From IMG/VR virus record IMGVR_UViG_2778261231_000002, positions 1 through 45,127 of that record: a stretch of 45,127 bases of DNA; one strand, 5' to 3'. This DNA is from a virus. Taxonomy: Duplodnaviria; Heunggongvirae; Uroviricota; Caudoviricetes. Position numbers and translations under genes: made by a program. The stretch's first letter is position 1, and each line of letters begins with the position of its first letter. Below, piece after piece: positions 5,333-44,476 of the stretch. The notes under the pieces are model-generated. The model made no database searches. It was given only the letters and a program-made list of their open reading frames with translations, and was not told where the DNA came from.

Positions 5333-5404
5333 CGTAGATTCATATTCGAATCGTTGTATATTCACCGCCCTGGTGAGTAGTGCGTCCTGCTGATGGGCAA
5401 ACTT

Positions 5405-5460
5405 TATCGGAATGATAAATTAATGGCAATAGCAAAATGATAAATTCTTTTGATTTTCAA
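5405..5460. promoter_or_regulatory. OL operator/pL region with repeated ATGATAAAT motif
   Basis: Motif at 5412-5420 and 5437-5445 plus inverted half-site; same motif recurs at OR. Confidence 0.45.
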
Positions 5461-5622
5461 ATATCGTATTGATTCTTATGGTGTTTTATTTTGTTGTAGG
5501 AATTCGACAGGATAAATAAAGAGATTTGAGGGAGATCTGGATTGCGTGGTTTAGCAAGTTGTATCAATCAGTTTTTCAATAAATACAATGAGTTATGTTT
5601 TTTTAGGTGGGGGATCGAGAGG

Positions 5623-6783: not shown

Positions 6784-7488
6784 TCACGAACTTTTCAGCC
6801 ACTCCCTTGCCTCGATGTCATCCAGATGGCGAGATTGCTTCAGAATACCAGCCACATACTCCACCTTTGCTACTTGATGATAAGGCAACGTTATTGGCCT
6901 GTGGTCTTGGTTGATGCTTGTAAATTGGTATTCTCCATCTCTGTCATAGCCAAGAACCTTAATCATGTTGTGTCCTTCAACGGTTCTGACAAACACCTCA
7001 TCACCCGGGAATACTTTGGTGTTAGGCTCAATGAGTACATATTCTCCTGATTTTATTCTAGGCCACATGCTGTCTCCTTTCACACGAAGGCCAAAGGCAT
7101 CTGGATCATCGCTATAAATTTTGAGCCACCCATCGCGCTCTTCGGTCATCTCGATGGCACCATCAACACCAAGAATTGCCTCACCAACCACGCGCACTAA
7201 CCCTTTTCTTACCTGACCGACAAAAGTTAAAGAATCTGAGCATGATGCAATTGGTGTTACATCATGTACCAAATCAAGCCACCCATTAGGTAACCCAAGT
7301 GCGGCTTCAAATTTTCTTGCTAGTTTATCCCCTATGTTTCGAGTGCTTTTTTCACCGGAGACTTGCGTGAGTTGAGAAGGGCTAACCCCAAGCTTATCGG
7401 CAAAGCTTGCATTAGTGTTACCCGCGATTTTTTTATGCTCATCTAGCAAAAACGCCAGATTCGATTTGCGAATATCTTTGTTTTCCAT
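6784..7488 (-). CDS. cI: CI-type repressor (HTH plus S24 LexA-like peptidase)
   Basis: N-terminal HTH; C-terminal GDSMWP with downstream Lys, typical autocleavage domain. Confidence 0.85.
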   Translation of the reverse strand: MENKDIRKSNLAFLLDEHKKIAGNTNASFADKLGVSPSQLTQVSGEKSTRNIGDKLARKFEAALGLPNGWLDLVHDVTPIASCSDSLTFVGQVRKGLVRVVGEAILGVDGAIEMTEERDGWLKIYSDDPDAFGLRVKGDSMWPRIKSGEYVLIEPNTKVFPGDEVFVRTVEGHNMIKVLGYDRDGEYQFTSINQDHRPITLPYHQVAKVEYVAGILKQSRHLDDIEAREWLKSS

Positions 7489-13795: not shown

Positions 13796-14280
13796 GCATA
13801 AGAGAACTAAACCTCACCAAAGAGCAGCACGAGTGGCTGAATGGCTGGCTTGAACTGTGGGGCGCATGGGTTTATTCAGGTCGTCTGGAAAAGCGCATGA
13901 GCAGCGTAATAGCGAAGTTCATGGAGAGCGTAGAGCCGGGAAGAATTATGACAAGGCCAATGTGTAATGATGATGATGGAATGTTGATTTCTCAGGTCGT
14001 CGATTCCGTCATGTGCATTGACAAGAAAGCCTTTGGCATCCTCCTCAGCTACTACGCTCATGGATCTTCCAAGCATGCCATTGCATCTTACTATCATCGT
14101 GTCGCAAGACCTCGCAAGATGTTATGCCGGGGCGGCGGGCGTATTCAAAAACCATCGCTCGCAACCTGTCGCCGGGAAGTTGACGAAATCCTCAATGCTT
14201 CGTTGTTTATGATTTACCCAGTTCTGGATAGTGCGTTTAAAAACCGGAAACGTGTAGAGAAAATTAAACATGTAGCATAG
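13792..14280 (+). CDS. Q: late antiterminator Q-like
   Basis: Position after ninH and before tRNAs/lysis; size 162 aa. Confidence 0.55.
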   Translation: MSIRELNLTKEQHEWLNGWLELWGAWVYSGRLEKRMSSVIAKFMESVEPGRIMTRPMCNDDDGMLISQVVDSVMCIDKKAFGILLSYYAHGSSKHAIASYYHRVARPRKMLCRGGGRIQKPSLATCRREVDEILNASLFMIYPVLDSAFKNRKRVEKIKHVA

Positions 14281-14371
14281 AACGTGTTGACATCATTGAG
14301 CAAATGAGCAACACTATTCGCATAAGCTGCCGTTAGTGACTCTTAAGTTGCAACGGTGGATTTTTTTATTT

Positions 14372-14446
14372 GGGTCAGTCGTATAAAGGTCATTACGGAA
14401 GGCTGTTAACCTTCTTATCGTGGTTCGAGTCCACGCTGTCCCGCCA
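14372..14446 (+). tRNA. tRNA-Asn (anticodon GTT), one acceptor mismatch
   Basis: Hand-folded cloverleaf: loop CTGTTAA, T-loop GGTTCGAGTCC, CCA end. Confidence 0.5.
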
Positions 14447-14451
14447 AACAT

Positions 14452-14527
14452 GCTGGTTTAGCTCCAATGGTAGAGCGGTCGCCTTGTAAGCGAATGGGTA
14501 GCGGTTCAAGTCCGTTAACCAGCACCA
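14452..14527 (+). tRNA. tRNA-Thr (anticodon TGT)
   Basis: 76-nt cloverleaf folded by hand: acceptor GCTGGTT/AACCAGC, D-stem GCTC/GAGC, loop CTTGTAA, CCA. Confidence 0.6.
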
Positions 14528-39474: not shown

Positions 39475-39520
39475 ATTCGTAATGCGAAGGTCGTAGGTTC
39501 GACTCCTATTATCGGCACCA
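39475..39520 (+). other. att core: 46-bp 3' end of tRNA-Thr (thrW-like), not a full tRNA
   Basis: Anticodon loop TTCGTAA onward, T-arm GGTTCGACTCC, acceptor TATCGGC+A+CCA; no matching 5' half upstream. Confidence 0.55.
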
Positions 39521-39534
39521 TTAAAATCAATAAG

Positions 39535-40698
39535 TTACACATCATTAGTACCTTCCTTATTTTTTGACTGGGACAAATTTGGGACCGATGGGTTCAGGAT
39601 CGAGTCTATTTGCCGTGCGTGTTCGGTAAGGTGATTAGGTGCAAGGTGAGCATATCGACGAACCATTTCGATAGACTCCCAGCCTCCCATTTCCTGTAAA
39701 ACTGACAACGGGACTCCGGCTTGAACCAGCCAACTTGCCCAGGTGTGTCTCAAGTCGTGAAATCTGAAATCATCAATACCAGCCCGTCTCAGCGCCGCTT
39801 TCCAGGCTGTGTTTGCGTCATACCGCATCTTCCTTACTGTTGGCGCTTTCGTTCCGTCTGGTTTGGTACAGCTTTCCTTGTACACAAATACCCAACGGTG
39901 ATGATTCCCGATTTGTTTTTTCAATACGCGACATGCAGTATCATTCAGCGCAACGCCAATTGCGCGGTTTGATTTACTCTCTTCCGGGTTTATCCATGCC
40001 ACCCGGCGCTGCATATCTATTTGTTGCCATTCAAGGTTGATGATGTTCGAGCGTCTTAAGCCTGTTGCCAGTGCAAATTCAACAACAGACTTTAATGGCT
40101 CCGGACATTCATCAATCAGCCTTTGTGCTTCATGGGGCTCCAGCCAGCGGATCCGTTTATTCTTTGGTTGAGGCACTTTAATAATTGGTGCCTTATCCAG
40201 CATTTTCCATTCACGCTCTGCGGCTCTTAGTAGGGCCTTTATAAATGAAAGATGCGTAGCCTTCGTTGCAACGGACGCTGGTTTTGGCGTGTATTCTGGA
40301 ACAGGTTTCCCTTTTTTTCTGCATGCTTCTGCCCTGAGTTTCCAGTTTTCCTCATGACGCCGGTTCGTCATTTTCTGCATTGCTGAATAAATTTTTGATT
40401 CAGTAATGTCTCTTAGTTGCATTCCTGCGAAATGTTGAAGCCAGAATCCGATCCGGCTTTTGTCATCGTCCAGTGATTTTTTATGTGCTTTCTCTTCAAG
40501 CCACCTGACACACGCTTCCTCGAACGTTATATCAGGTATTTCACCAAGTTTGCTGACCCGCCATGCTTCAGCCTTTAGCTTGTCATGGAGTTCTGTCGCC
40601 TGCCTTTTGTCCTTTGTTCCAAGAGACTGTTTAAATCTTTTACCGTTCGGCAATGTGAAACTGGCGTACCATATTTCACCTCTGCGGAAGAGTGACAT
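39535..40698 (-). CDS. int: tyrosine integrase (P22 Int-like)
   Basis: 387 aa; catalytic R...HDLRHTWAS...Y; convergent on tRNA fragment. Confidence 0.9.
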
Positions 40699-41230: not shown

Positions 41231-41592
41231 TATGCTCCAGCCTCCGGTGCTTTTGGCATTACTGCCCAGTGAGTGATATTGACGTTTTCAAGGTCCCCGA
41301 CCTGAAATGTCCACTGCCATTCTCCGGTTTCTTTTTGTCCCCAGGTGTACCAGAGAGAACGCCAGCCAATTAGCCAGCCTTCTCCGTTAGCATCGAATAA
41401 CAAAACACTTTCATTTGCTGGTGGCAGTTCAGTTGACACTGGTATTACTTTGTTTTCCTGTGCTGCACATTTAGCTTCAAGCGCATCGAATTTACGCACC
41501 AGGTATTCAGCATCTGTTTCATTTACTTTCAGATCTCGCGGTACACATCTCCCACGAAGAAACCCTTCCATTTCGAAAACATTCATGCGCAT
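41230..41592 (-). CDS. hypothetical early protein
   Basis: 120-aa Trp-rich ORF. Confidence 0.4.
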   Translation of the reverse strand: MRMNVFEMEGFLRGRCVPRDLKVNETDAEYLVRKFDALEAKCAAQENKVIPVSTELPPANESVLLFDANGEGWLIGWRSLWYTWGQKETGEWQWTFQVGDLENVNITHWAVMPKAPEAGA

Positions 41593-42146
41593 TTGCGTAA
41601 CTCCGATAACTCGTTAAAGCGTTCCATAAACATCCCGTAGGCATGGCCCGGTGCCAGTGGAATCACGTTGAACATCTCTGTTGCCGGGATACCTTCCAGT
41701 ACAGGCCAGAAAGAGCCATCATCAAGCCCGAGATCGCGGCGTTCGGTTGCCAGCATGATGAGATCGGCATATTTCACGGGCGTACTCATAACTGGGGGTA
41801 ACCCGTATTTCTCACGGATTACGGCGTCTATTTTTTCTTCCATTTGTTTATAGTCAGGAAGAAGGCGTTTCAGTGGTGCGGGGATGTCCTGGCAATATGC
41901 TTCTGTTGCATCATGCATTAAAGCTTCAAAAGCAAATTCCTGCGGCACCAGCTGGCTGCAAAGCACCGCATGTTGGGCGACACTGTAGAAGTGTGAAAGA
42001 TGTCCTGCAAAGCGACAGATATTTGAAAGGGAAACCGCGATATCGTTAATAACGATGTCGTCTTTATTTATCCTGTCATAATAAAAATGCTTCCCGGAAA
42101 AAGTTTTAATAAATGACATTTTGTTCTCCACGTATATGCGCTGCAC
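41583..42146 (-). CDS. HD-domain phosphohydrolase (YfdR-like)
   Basis: H...HD motif (MHDATEAY). Confidence 0.5.
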   Translation of the reverse strand: MQRIYVENKMSFIKTFSGKHFYYDRINKDDIVINDIAVSLSNICRFAGHLSHFYSVAQHAVLCSQLVPQEFAFEALMHDATEAYCQDIPAPLKRLLPDYKQMEEKIDAVIREKYGLPPVMSTPVKYADLIMLATERRDLGLDDGSFWPVLEGIPATEMFNVIPLAPGHAYGMFMERFNELSELRKCA

Positions 42147-42216
42147 CGCGCTGAATTCCGGTAAAAGGAAGCCCTCACCGTCCGGCGATTATTGAGTCAA
42201 TTACATTTCCATAAAT

Positions 42217-42600
42217 GCCCCCGTAGGGGCGGTTAGTTTCTCCACAAAACAGAGAAGAACACCTGCGGTGGCAGCCGCCCGGATGGATTGGGTTATGAGC
42301 CCGTCGTCCGGTGATGCTCTTCTCTGTTTTGTAAAAAGAGCGGTACCAGCCGGAAGCAAGTGTACAAACTGGTACCGCGAGGACTACACACAGCATAAAG
42401 TTGTGGTGCCGGGTGCCTCCCGGTGCCTGGCGAAGGTTGCACACCAGGCGGGTGGGTATCCACAGAAGGTCGACTGTCAGCCTCAACCTTAACCCGCGTG
42501 CGCTGAGCCGCATTCACCACAACGCTAAGGATTCTCTCTGGTTGAAAATACTTAGCTGTTATGTGCCTGCTTTTAGCCACATCAGGCGAGGTGGACCTAG
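42217..42600. ncRNA. candidate structured non-coding region (strand and function unknown)
   Basis: GC-rich, no credible ORF; 15-bp perfect inverted repeat 42244-42258/42318-42332, 10-bp inverted repeat 42340-42349/42369-42378, hairpin 42217-42230. Confidence 0.25.
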
Positions 42601-42663
42601 TTATTCCCCAACAACAAGGATTCGGTTAATCTGGTTATCCCCAACAACGCAAAAGGAAAAGAA

Positions 42664-43098
42664 ATGTCCGGTAATATCTATACGCTGTACAAATCCCACT
42701 GTGAAAATGTTGGAAAGTATCGGGGCATTGAAATCAGTGGGGTAGTGTCATCAGTCGAAATAAGCAAAGTTGAATCAAGGGCAACATTACTTACTCTTTT
42801 GGACCTTGTCTTACATGAGCACCGGAAGAAATTCGGCACTCCCTATAATCAGTTGAATGGGAAAAAGGCTCTGGTTCACCTTATTCTGATGAAGCATCAC
42901 TGGATGCCAAAACAGATTAATGAGATGAAATTTGATGAACTTCTTCTTTCAATTCAGGATGAACTCACACTTGATAAAATAAGCGTAACCGCCCAGAAAT
43001 TTTTAGATTATCGAGACTGGAGATCACAAATTCATCATTTTGATGATTTTGACGAAAATGAATGGGATCCTAATTTGTCTGCACAATATCTAAAGTAA
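42664..43098 (+). CDS. hypothetical protein, AT-rich, opposite to element B early genes
   Basis: 144-aa ORF; direct repeats TCCCCAACAAC at 42605 and 42638 upstream. Confidence 0.45.
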   Translation: MSGNIYTLYKSHCENVGKYRGIEISGVVSSVEISKVESRATLLTLLDLVLHEHRKKFGTPYNQLNGKKALVHLILMKHHWMPKQINEMKFDELLLSIQDELTLDKISVTAQKFLDYRDWRSQIHHFDDFDENEWDPNLSAQYLK

Positions 43099-43291
43099 CA
43101 TCCTGTGATAAAACCGTGATTTCCTGATCCAGTTTTTTTAAGGAGTCTATTGTTTCCTGTCGATAAGACAGCACTTCACGAAGCTGGTTTATAGCTGCCA
43201 GCTTCTTTGTCATCCACTCATAAATTTCCTCATCTGTGTAGCCAGGCGCGACGATTTTGGGTTCTGTTTTGTGCATTTCACATCTCCTCAA
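43070..43291 (-). CDS. hypothetical small protein
   Basis: 73-aa ORF convergent with 42664..43098. Confidence 0.3.
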   Translation of the reverse strand: MRRCEMHKTEPKIVAPGYTDEEIYEWMTKKLAAINQLREVLSYRQETIDSLKKLDQEITVLSQDVTLDIVQTN

Positions 43292-43477
43292 GTTATCAGT
43301 TACTTGTTGATGGGGACCAGATTGTTAAAGAGCTAAGCGTCCTGTAGGGCGCTTTTTTGTTGCTAACGAATCATCCTGGACTTCATATGCCCCAGGCGGC
43401 TACTTCGTGGGCGTCCTGCCTGTTCGTTGTTTCGCTTGGGTACATTATGTATCTCAAAGGTACATTGTCAAGTATAA

Positions 43478-43510: not shown

Positions 43511-44185
43511 TTAGGCTTTGATTTTGTATCTTCTTGGTTTTCCTGAGAAAATCACTGTACCAATTATAGAGCAATTACCGTTGATCTTAATGTAAGGCTC
43601 AGGCCAGTTTGGGTTTAACGCTTTGAGATAACGCTGTGTCCCATCTTCTATCAACCTTTTGAAGGTGGTTTCACCTGTATCGTGCATCAATGCAATAACG
43701 TCGTCACCGTGGCAGGCAGGTACTTCAGGATCGACAAAAATCATGTCTCCCGGGCGGTACTCATCAATCATTGAATCACCTATCACCCGCAAGATATAAG
43801 TCATTTCCCCACAGGGTACAGGGCAGGGATACGTTTCTGCTGTGCTCAAATCAACCTCAGAATATCCAACTTCTTTCCATGCTCCGGCCTGTACCCATGA
43901 TATGACAGGGACTAATGTGATTTGTTTATTAGTGATTGAAACATCAGGTTTTTTTGTGATGTTCGTTGTCTGGTGTTCTTGATCGAGCCATCCGACAGGC
44001 AGGTCGAAACATTTTTCGATGTGTCGTGCCATGCTGTCACCGATATTTTTAGTAGCACCATCTCCCATAAACCTGCTGGTCTGGGTTGGCTCGCGATCAA
44101 TCATAGTGGCAAAGGAAGAATTCCCGCCAACACCATCTCTCAGTTTTCTGGCGTTAGACCGCCGGATGTCATGGATTGTTTTCAT
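43511..44185 (-). CDS. second CI-type repressor (HTH plus S24 peptidase)
   Basis: GDSM active-site motif; N-terminal HTH. Confidence 0.8.
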   Translation of the reverse strand: MKTIHDIRRSNARKLRDGVGGNSSFATMIDREPTQTSRFMGDGATKNIGDSMARHIEKCFDLPVGWLDQEHQTTNITKKPDVSITNKQITLVPVISWVQAGAWKEVGYSEVDLSTAETYPCPVPCGEMTYILRVIGDSMIDEYRPGDMIFVDPEVPACHGDDVIALMHDTGETTFKRLIEDGTQRYLKALNPNWPEPYIKINGNCSIIGTVIFSGKPRRYKIKA

Positions 44186-44275: not shown

Positions 44276-44476
44276 ATGAAAGCGTATTGGGACTCTTTAA
44301 CCAAAGAACAGCAGGGCGAGTTGGCCGGAAAAGTTGGCTCAACACCTGGCTACTTACGGCTGGTTTTCAATGGCTATAAAAAAGCCAGTTTTGTGCTGGC
44401 TAAAAAACTTGAGCAATGCACGTCAGGTGCAATTACGAAATCTGACTTAAGACCGGATATCTATCCGAAAGATTAG
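44276..44476 (+). CDS. Cro-like HTH protein
   Basis: 66 aa; GGAGG RBS; divergent from repressor B. Confidence 0.55.
   Translation: MKAYWDSLTKEQQGELAGKVGSTPGYLRLVFNGYKKASFVLAKKLEQCTSGAITKSDLRPDIYPKD

Follow-up and report, generated by a model that had tools for sequence, protein, structure and literature searches.

A composite structured RNA with an STnc100-type domain in the early-left operon of an SfII/SfIV/SfV-like prophage

The non-coding gap and its features

The window analyzed here, 45,127 nucleotides (nt) of the IMG/VR virus record IMGVR_UViG_2778261231_000002, is a lambdoid prophage of the SfII/SfIV/SfV type. A gap between the gene for a YfdR-like HD phosphatase and a plus-strand gene beginning at position 42664 is not protein coding; it specifies a folded RNA of about 380 bases on the minus strand, and the home of this element is the early-left (pL) operon of the prophage. 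The first of its modules is, judged from sequence and predicted fold, a divergent member of the STnc100/PasD family of prophage small RNAs (sRNAs), and the second, designated module B, is a long stem that carries a hairpin identical to the anticodon stem-loop of the Escherichia coli initiator tRNA.

The most likely start of the HD phosphatase gene is the ATG at 42119 with its ribosome-binding site GGAG, so that the gap comprises positions 42120 to 42663, or about 544 base pairs (bp). A first-pass annotation of the sequence had put it at about 450 bp, which was too small, and had seen no credible open reading frame (ORF) in it, which agrees with the result described below. All inverted repeats listed in that annotation are present: a 15-bp perfect repeat (42244-42258/42318-42332, spacer 59 nt), a 10-bp perfect repeat (42340-42349/42369-42378, loop 19 nt), the GCCCC/GGGGC hairpin at 42217-42231, and, as a further stem, the 9-bp perfect pair of helix P1. 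The region is also GC-rich with AT-richer flanks as described, with a GC content of 0.57 in 42300-42599 compared to 0.40 to 0.46 on either side. The strand, the presence of at least two separable RNA modules, and the role of the 10-bp repeat as putative terminator of the first module had been missed. In the direction of the RNA, the features are the following.

42565-42587, minus strand: hairpin H0 (GCCUG-loop-CAGGC), then ACAUAAC; 5'-most block common to the relatives
42524-42556, minus strand: short hairpin with 13-bp arms and a 7-nt loop (inverted repeat I3)
42400-42523, minus strand: STnc100-type domain, 124 nt, helix-closed, with multiple hairpins (RF02076 match; 48 distinct IMG/VR cores)
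42400-42408/42515-42523, minus strand: arms of the closing helix P1 (GUUGUGGUG/CACCACAAC), 9 bp, perfect, around hairpins P2 to P5
42484-42490 (AAGGUUG) with the P4 loop 42433-42439 (CAACCUU), minus strand: pseudoknot
42409-42423, minus strand: P5 hairpin CCGGG-AGGCA-CCCGG, unchanged in 19 sequences
42379-42399, minus strand: linker CUUUAUGCUGUGUGUAGUCCUC, containing the motif GCUGUGUG(U/A)AGUC
42331-42378, minus strand: terminator-type hairpin with a 10-bp GC-rich stem and a 19-nt loop, then UCUUUUUAC (inverted repeat I5)
42241-42335, minus strand: module B, three-way junction closed by a long outer stem (RNAalifold consensus)
42279-42311, minus strand: branch 1 of module B
42290-42302, minus strand: apical hairpin GGG-CUCAUAA-CCC at the tip of branch 1 (GGGCUCAUAACCC)
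42265-42278, minus strand: branch 2 of module B
42217-42231, minus strand: small GC hairpin (GCCCC/GGGGC) after GGAGAAAC(U/C)AAC

Absence of a protein gene and evidence for a minus-strand RNA

Pfam gave no match for any of the four ORFs in the gap, and a coding gene was rejected after comparison of all four with Pfam and PHROGs and of the two longest with divergent loci. Both of the latter, 74 amino acids on the plus strand and 112 on the minus strand, are broken by in-frame stops in ST64B, in the related loci L158 and L054, and in others. A decayed coding gene, named in the first-pass annotation as an outcome that would speak against its proposal, was examined as well, and neither of these two reading frames was found to be conserved in divergent homologues. 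PGAP lists the same DNA as a "frameshifted" pseudo-coding sequence in E. coli ATCC 11775, copies of module B differ in length by 1, 3, 4, or 8 nt, and "hypothetical proteins" are annotated across the region in SfII, SfIV, and mEp460. The plus-strand ORF of 74 amino acids matched phrog_3651 (1e-49), which indicates repeated mis-annotation of conserved RNA-coding DNA; the match shows only that annotators repeatedly called the same DNA an ORF.

Folding of 42150-42600 gave z scores of −5.74 for the minus and −3.16 for the plus strand, and 0 of 100 shuffles was as stable on either strand. By way of G-U pairs, which are A-C mismatches on the plus strand, the 15-bp repeat is extended to 25 consecutive pairs on the minus strand. 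Since these G-U pairs are possible only in a minus-strand transcript, RNA is favored over DNA or a protein-binding site. Of the earlier proposal of a "structured RNA or protein-binding locus," the RNA part is borne out by the Rfam match, the covarying helices, and the pseudoknot, and the DNA or protein-binding part is disfavored. Two of the checks suggested with that proposal, an Rfam scan and a covariation analysis, were performed, yielding STnc100 above its gathering score on the minus strand and support for the helices and the pseudoknot, respectively.

The STnc100-type domain and its pseudoknot

The search of the whole window with cmscan returned STnc100 (RF02076) at 42553 to 42331 on the minus strand with 49.1 bits and E = 1.1e-7 over the full model from 1 to 206, the gathering score being 47 bits; the only other matches were two tRNAs at 14372-14443 and 14452-14524. 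The architecture is that of the family: a closing helix surrounds several hairpins, and CCGGG-AGGCA-CCCGG abuts this helix. Shared with STnc100, PasD1, and PasD2 are the closing helix UGGUG...CACCA, the 3' hairpin CACCGGGAGGCACCCGGCACCA, a terminator-type hairpin followed by a U-tract, and the location in a prophage. The P4 hairpins fold in most lineages despite differing stem sequences.

In BLAST comparisons, the core block 42382-42594 is about 97% identical in SfII, SfIV, and SfV, about 77% in ST64B, and about 81% in the Cronobacter phage phiES15, and 1844 of the 5426 complete E. coli genomes carry an STnc100-like core. The region is a mosaic, and this core block and a block at 42227-42378 travel separately. 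When IMG/VR was scanned with a pattern built around the closing helix, 120 stretches with 48 distinct cores were found, which belong to two types. Type 1 resembles the window and has CACCGGGAGGCACCCGGCACCAC at its end. Type 2 is mEp460-like and has the same closing helix around a different interior that is highly variable among phages; the loops of its first and last hairpins (P2 and P5), GCUGAU and AUCAGC, are complementary, conserved, and not covarying. Copies of type 2 are located in L003 (mEp460) at 2350-2490 and in L194 (Stx2a_WGPS2) at about 5350-5500 on the minus strand; the latter, in a leader where a type 2 copy was expected, went unreported by Rfam even at E ≤ 0.01. A hammerhead-like CUGAUG...GAAA in the type 2 P2 hairpin was rejected, being neither conserved nor accompanied by a stem II.

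In type 1, the segment right after the 5' strand of P3 complements the loop of the P4 hairpin. A perfect complement of 6 to 7 bp was found in seven of eight lineages in five sequence versions: AAGGUUG/CAACCUU in the window and ST64B, AAGGCUG/CAGCCUU in phiES15, UGGUUAA/UUAACCA in L054, UGGUUAU/AUAACCA in L118, CAGUUA/UAACUG in L072, and AGCUGGC/GCCAGCU in L078. With the P4 loops defined by hand, the complement of each lineage was equaled by 7 to 102 of 5000 double shuffles. At the equivalent places of a canonical STnc100 copy with 153.8 bits, 75 nt after stx2B, GGUGUC and GACACC were found by eye. The pseudoknot is missing from the structure line of RF02076 as printed by cmscan.

Flanking hairpins, linker, and putative terminator

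Homology with phiES15, SfII, and the IMG/VR loci begins at H0, the stem of which is kept with differing loops (AUGUGGCUAAAAG compared to AAGUGGUGAAAAGA). As became apparent when the upstream flanks of 62 distinct loci were compared, the following hairpin at 42524-42556 occupies the place of a larger cassette, "M0," in the relatives. On the other side of the domain, the motif GCUGUGUG(U/A)AGUC precedes the terminator in ST64B, phiES15, L016, L036, L066, and L091 despite differing flanks, and some lineages, mEp460 for instance, possess a different linker. The linker is a candidate for a seed or Hfq-proximal region. Its best non-self duplex in the window, at 2536-2595 on the plus strand, had −23.4 kcal/mol, about 4 standard deviations below the mean, and may be due to chance.

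The hairpin at 42331-42378 aligns to the STnc100 terminator and forms the 3' end of the Rfam match. Its stem covaries fully among lineages (GGCGGUACCAG, GUCGGCGUC, GGCGGUGG, GGCGCCG, GCCCGC), and a U-run follows in all lineages compared; in the window, the stem is followed by U5. A simple terminator scan did not call the site because the loop is longer than 8 nt. The hairpin and the constant U-run indicate the predicted anatomy of a terminator-ended sRNA. The sequence CGCUCUUUUUACAA after this stem is boxA-like; most relatives read CCGUCCUUUUUAC or CCGCCCUUUUUAC, and for this reason a boxA within the element was rejected and the sequence treated as U-tract. The small hairpin at 42217-42231 keeps its position among relatives with changing stems (GCCCC/GGGGC, GACC/GGUC, GGCGG/CCGCC, GCCC/GGGC).

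Module B and its initiator-tRNA-like hairpin

The outer stem of module B has 19 pairs in the consensus and 25 in the window, including the 15-bp perfect repeat. An alignment of 18 distinct copies was folded with RNAalifold, and the pairs were counted: 97.0% of the cells of the 33 pairs are paired, compared to 37 to 50% when the partners were slid by 1 to 3 columns, and 6 pairs show changes on both sides (24 cells), values reached in 0 of 500 shuffles. The G-U pairs alternate with A-U and G-C across the homologues in columns 5/103, 8/100, 21/87, and 24/84. No Rfam family matched module B at E ≤ 0.1, and it is without annotation in the five E. coli records listed. BLAST located module B in 2776 of the 5426 complete E. 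coli genomes, at up to five places in each. With 98% identity, and attached to a type 2 core, the block 42227-42378, which contains the terminator and module B, is also found in mEp460, 2H10, cdtI, and many Stx2c phages; module B thus occurs in phages apart from the window-type STnc100 core.

The apical hairpin GGG-CUCAUAA-CCC is identical to the anticodon stem-loop of E. coli tRNA-fMet. Bacterial initiator tRNAs are recognizable by a CAU anticodon loop that is closed by three G-C pairs in succession. In an alignment of metZ (CGTCGGGCTCATAACCC) with the window (CGACGGGCTCATAACCC), as strings CGUCGGGCUCAUAACCC to CGACGGGCUCAUAACCC, 16 of 17 bases are alike, and 0 of 2000 shuffles reached this score. 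The likeness is confined to the anticodon arm and to these 17 nt: outside of them module B does not resemble a tRNA, the cloverleaf of acceptor, D, anticodon, and T arms is absent, and Rfam reported no tRNA at the locus.

Because the first collection of module B copies had been picked by the hairpin motif, a rescan used the outer-stem pattern only and was thus independent of the motif. Of 55 distinct interiors, 30 were exact, 6 read CUCAUUA, a further group CUCAUUC, and a few CCCAUAA, CCCAUCA, or CUCCUAA; the non-exact interiors retain GGG/CCC and mostly CUCAU. Loop positions 37 and 38 vary (AA, UA, UC, CA), and strict mimicry is therefore not maintained. The likeness to the initiator tRNA could also be the neutral relic of a tRNA gene.

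Cassette arrays with tRNA genes

In many relatives, M0 is located 5' of the STnc100-type domain and has the form CAAC-A-GGUAAGAGCAUUG...cargo...CAGUGCUCUUUCC-GUUG. Module B is likewise a cassette of this kind, and the M0 of the window is reduced to the hairpin at 42524-42556. In some phages, M0-type cassettes and P1 domains line up with tRNA genes on a single strand, for instance in these two arrays.

L118, 4809-4263, minus strand: tRNA-Asn, tRNA-Tyr, tRNA-Thr, M0, P1 domain, tRNA-Ser
L056, 5830-4770, minus strand: M0, M0, P1', M0, P1, four tRNAs

The L056 island is inserted in opposite orientation between a tail terminator gene and a gene for an Ig-domain tail protein. This reversed position inside a tail-gene cluster indicates that the modules are not tied to Q/pR', and the idea of a late-operon leader was rejected. 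At the CAAC...GUUG junctions of the arrays, neighboring helices could compete for the same bases.

In 101 regions, T-arm-like hairpins numbered 23 in sense and none in antisense orientation; some of the 23 are parts of real tRNAs, and several occur at loci in which ARAGORN calls no tRNA. Examples inside cassettes are GUCCG-UUCAAUU-CGGAC and GUGGG-UUCAACU-CCCAC (L015 at about 7040-7160; L022, L036, and L123 near the P1 domain). The sequences tentatively suggest a family of stable-RNA cassettes with tRNA-like cargo.

Gene context and the pL leader

The early-left operon reads on the minus strand from cI/pL through the yfdR-like gene and xis to int. The surrounding features are these.

39535-40698, minus strand: int, left arm
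41583-42119, minus strand: YfdR-like HD phosphatase gene (phrog_318)
42664-43098, plus strand: gene for 144 amino acids, function not assigned (phrog_5286)
43070-43291: first pL gene, 73 amino acids, function not assigned (phrog_1744)
43322-43354, minus strand: hairpin (AAGCGCCCUACAGGACGCUU) directly followed by a boxA of the rrn type without mismatches (GCUCUUUAACAA); the pL-like promoter is about 110 nt upstream
43471-43444, minus strand: pL-like promoter, 11 of 12 consensus positions
43511-44185, minus strand: LexA-type cI, assigned among other things from the SfIV annotation

The boxA GCUCUUUAACAA is the sole zero-mismatch match in the window, and from its sequence this boxA/pL region is likely the transcriptional entry to the element. 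The order of hairpin and boxA is that of rRNA operons and not that of lambda nut sites. A copy of boxA with two mismatches, ACTCTTTAACCA, is located on the pR side at 44292-44303 on the plus strand.

Just 5' of the plus-strand gene at 42664-43098, TTAT(T/C)CCCCAACAAC occurs twice in direct orientation at a distance of about 34 nt (42602-42649, plus strand); the two copies resemble an operator and are common to related loci carrying the phrog_5286 gene. A T-arm-like GGTTCGACTCC at 39496-39506 on the plus strand, just beyond the integrase gene, has a position that fits a prophage end within a tRNA gene (attachment site). In the late region (14280-14524, plus strand), a promoter-like TTGACA is followed by a GC hairpin with a T-run (tR'-like), two tRNA genes, and a holin gene; unlike in Stx phages, an STnc100-type module is absent from this position. 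Matches to IsrK and C4-antisense RNA were found beside antirepressor genes in L004 (21-97, minus strand) and L194 (7895-8083, plus strand), and the Rfam scan reported neither of them in the window.

Proposed mechanism and alternatives

The element is probably, albeit with considerable reserve, a composite minus-strand non-coding RNA with two outputs, a terminated RNA of the STnc100/PasD type ending at 42331-42339 and a read-through transcript that carries module B. It would be transcribed in the direction of pL, with two small hairpins followed by the 124-nt pseudoknotted domain, a single-stranded motif, and the terminator-type hairpin with its U-tract. Termination should yield an RNA of about 220 to 260 nt whose 3' hairpin and U tail would be of the kind typical for sRNAs bound to Hfq, and, by analogy with PasD and STnc100, this RNA may act in trans by base pairing. 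Read-through, which is plausible because the pL leader contains a perfect boxA, would extend the transcript into module B during lytic growth. The long stem of module B may then be a processing or stabilizing signal of the RNase III-substrate type that separates the cargo from the downstream mRNA, and the cargo hairpin may bind a factor recognizing the anticodon arm of tRNA-fMet.

Members of the family are abundant discrete RNAs. RNA-seq reads were obtained for all 11 STnc100 loci of EDL933, and a Northern blot showed one of them (PMC5331693); the stability of PasD is Hfq-dependent, with many partners in RIL-seq (PMC8550237); and PasD and STnc100 are reported to be structurally related (bioRxiv 10.64898/2026.05.13.724894).

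Several points weigh against the composite RNA. The Rfam match is only 2 bits above the gathering score, with 49 bits compared to 154 bits for a canonical STnc100 copy, and both SfII and SfIV (95 to 98% identical) and, at greater distance, ST64B and phiES15 stay below the threshold with 35.1 to 40.6 bits, which places this subfamily at the edge of the RF02076 model. The expression evidence stems from canonical STnc100 copies and not from the subfamily of the window. These copies are located in the late region downstream of stx/Q and, as seen in the copy examined, are without module B, so that the sRNA analogy may not carry over to a copy in the early-left operon that is followed by module B. 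Different from STnc100 and PasD, the copy of the window has another linker ("seed") and no adjacent promoter was found: the scan gave no sigma-70-like promoter adjoining the element, and a promoter of its own was rejected, as inspection of the flanks by eye gave weak −10-like hexamers that the window does not share. The pL promoter is about 850 nt upstream, with the plus-strand gene 42664-43098 in between. It is expected to be repressed in the lysogen, which makes expression in the prophage state putative. The loop of the terminator is unusually long with 19 nt (40 nt in ST64B). The target scan of the window with the linker gave its own antisense strand and only the weak site at 2536-2595, and targets inside the window were rejected. 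E. coli K-12 contains neither an STnc100-like core nor module B; its prophage CPS-53 was discarded as a source of transcriptome data, as it has lost the element and pawZ is a fragment of argW that is unrelated to it.

An alternative would be a purely cis-acting early-left leader, in which an attenuator or insulator, made up of the terminator and of read-through by boxA/Nus-dependent antitermination, together with RNase III-type processing stems governs expression and stability of the downstream genes with no role in trans; this is conceivable but rather improbable. Stems of the RNase III type are established for the lambda N leader and the sib sites. In every annotated relative, the element is located between cI, upstream in the pL direction, and the early-left genes downstream, and in ST64B no coding sequence is annotated from cI to the element, which is itself situated within a stretch of about 800 nt that is free of annotated ones. 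Such a position downstream of pL and before the first early-left genes, a perfect boxA in the same leader, and a long hairpin ahead of the next gene resemble antiterminated leaders such as lambda nutL and the RNase III hairpin of the N leader. A cis-acting leader would also agree with the lack of a promoter of its own, with the position of module B, always right after the terminator U-tract and ahead of the ribosome-binding site of the next gene, and with the perfect 25-bp stem, a plausible RNase III substrate. On the other hand, the same types of modules occur away from pL in tRNA islands within tail-gene clusters, the canonical copy after stx2B ends at its own terminator and no module B follows, a 124-nt pseudoknotted domain exceeds the needs of a terminator, and the relatives are discrete RNAs. 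Unlike in a lambda nutL leader, no N-like gene is evident and no boxB is located beside the element, and unlike antitermination RNAs, which suppress terminators, the element has a putative terminator at its end. The put RNA of HK022, a two-stem RNA of about 70 nt just after pL, suppresses terminators (PMC9378689). A put-type RNA was rejected because size and architecture differ, no similarity was found, and the element ends with a terminator; its distance from pL is about 850 nt in the window and 300 to 400 nt in ST64B and mEp460, and HK022 was absent among the phage matches listed in the BLAST search with the region.

Apart from the composite RNA, the modules could be tRNA-derived stable-RNA cassettes whose cargo is a decoy or sponge for tRNA-recognizing proteins, such as VapC-type anticodon nucleases, or binds methionyl-tRNA synthetase (MetRS) or the P site of the 30S subunit, which is unlikely. 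The thrS operator mimics the tRNA-Thr anticodon arm, and the T4 "species 1/2" RNAs are located in a tRNA cluster. Similar to such mimics and cluster RNAs, the hairpin is identical to the anticodon stem-loop of a host tRNA and has its geometry, and the match to metZ, 16 of 17 bases, includes the three initiator-marking G-C pairs; its stem and CUCAU are conserved in the motif-independent sample; and the modules of relatives are interleaved with same-strand tRNA genes and accompanied by T-arm-like hairpins, all in sense orientation. VapC toxins of enteric bacteria (Shigella, Salmonella) cleave tRNA-fMet in the anticodon region, and phage tRNAs were proposed to counter tRNA-cutting nucleases (PMC10264068); the tRNA-Lys of T5 is reported to neutralize PARIS (PMC11464382). 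Against a decoy stand the variation of loop positions 37 and 38 and the few copies with CCU or CCCAU, the confinement of the likeness to the anticodon arm, and the possible origin as a neutral relic. In contrast to a tRNA, module B has neither an acceptor nor a T arm, and in contrast to the named mimics, its partner is hypothetical and its loop not strictly conserved. A search of the literature for initiator-tRNA mimics in phages and for sRNA maps of ST64B gave nothing relevant, and thus no precedent for such a mimic.

Very improbable, finally, is a small protein gene, real or decayed, or a DNA-level element of inverted repeats for protein binding or recombination or of the kind of a miniature inverted-repeat transposable element (MITE): the annotated "hypothetical proteins," the phrog_3651 match, mosaic breakpoints at the module borders, and conserved arms around variable cargo, which resemble terminal inverted repeats, would agree with it, but the in-frame stops, the "frameshifted" annotation, the lack of Pfam families, and the length differences speak against a gene, and strand-specific G-U pairs and a pseudoknot are features of an RNA.

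Significance of the composite RNA

The core of the composite RNA belongs to a known family and is ordinary. Its composite architecture, comprising the pseudoknot, the widespread module B with its hairpin resembling the initiator tRNA, and the connection with arrays of tRNA genes, is undescribed as far as the searches show. About one-third of the complete E. coli genomes contain an STnc100-like core and about one-half module B, and where checked, this DNA is unannotated or listed as a broken "hypothetical protein." Recognition of the region as RNA would remove spurious ORFs from phage annotation, add a subfamily and a sister type, sub-threshold or unreported in Rfam, to this family of prophage sRNAs, and introduce a pseudoknot into the STnc100 family model.

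As a speculation, and a doubtful one, STnc100 could be one visible member of a larger modular system of stable-RNA cassettes in enterobacterial temperate phages, with the fMet-arm cargo as a decoy or inhibitor of a host factor that recognizes tRNA-fMet, for instance of a VapC-type anticodon nuclease serving in defense, so as to protect translation initiation during infection. This system may have two types of cassettes, "M0/module B" with a AAGAGCAU/AUGCUCUU stem and variable cargo and the pseudoknotted "P1," which may be joined via CAAC/GUUG junctions, strung together with tRNA genes, and bear mimics of tRNA parts. If the hairpin and the cassette arrays are functional, they would represent an RNA-based route of phages to the tRNA and translation-initiation machinery of the host or to tRNA-targeting defense.

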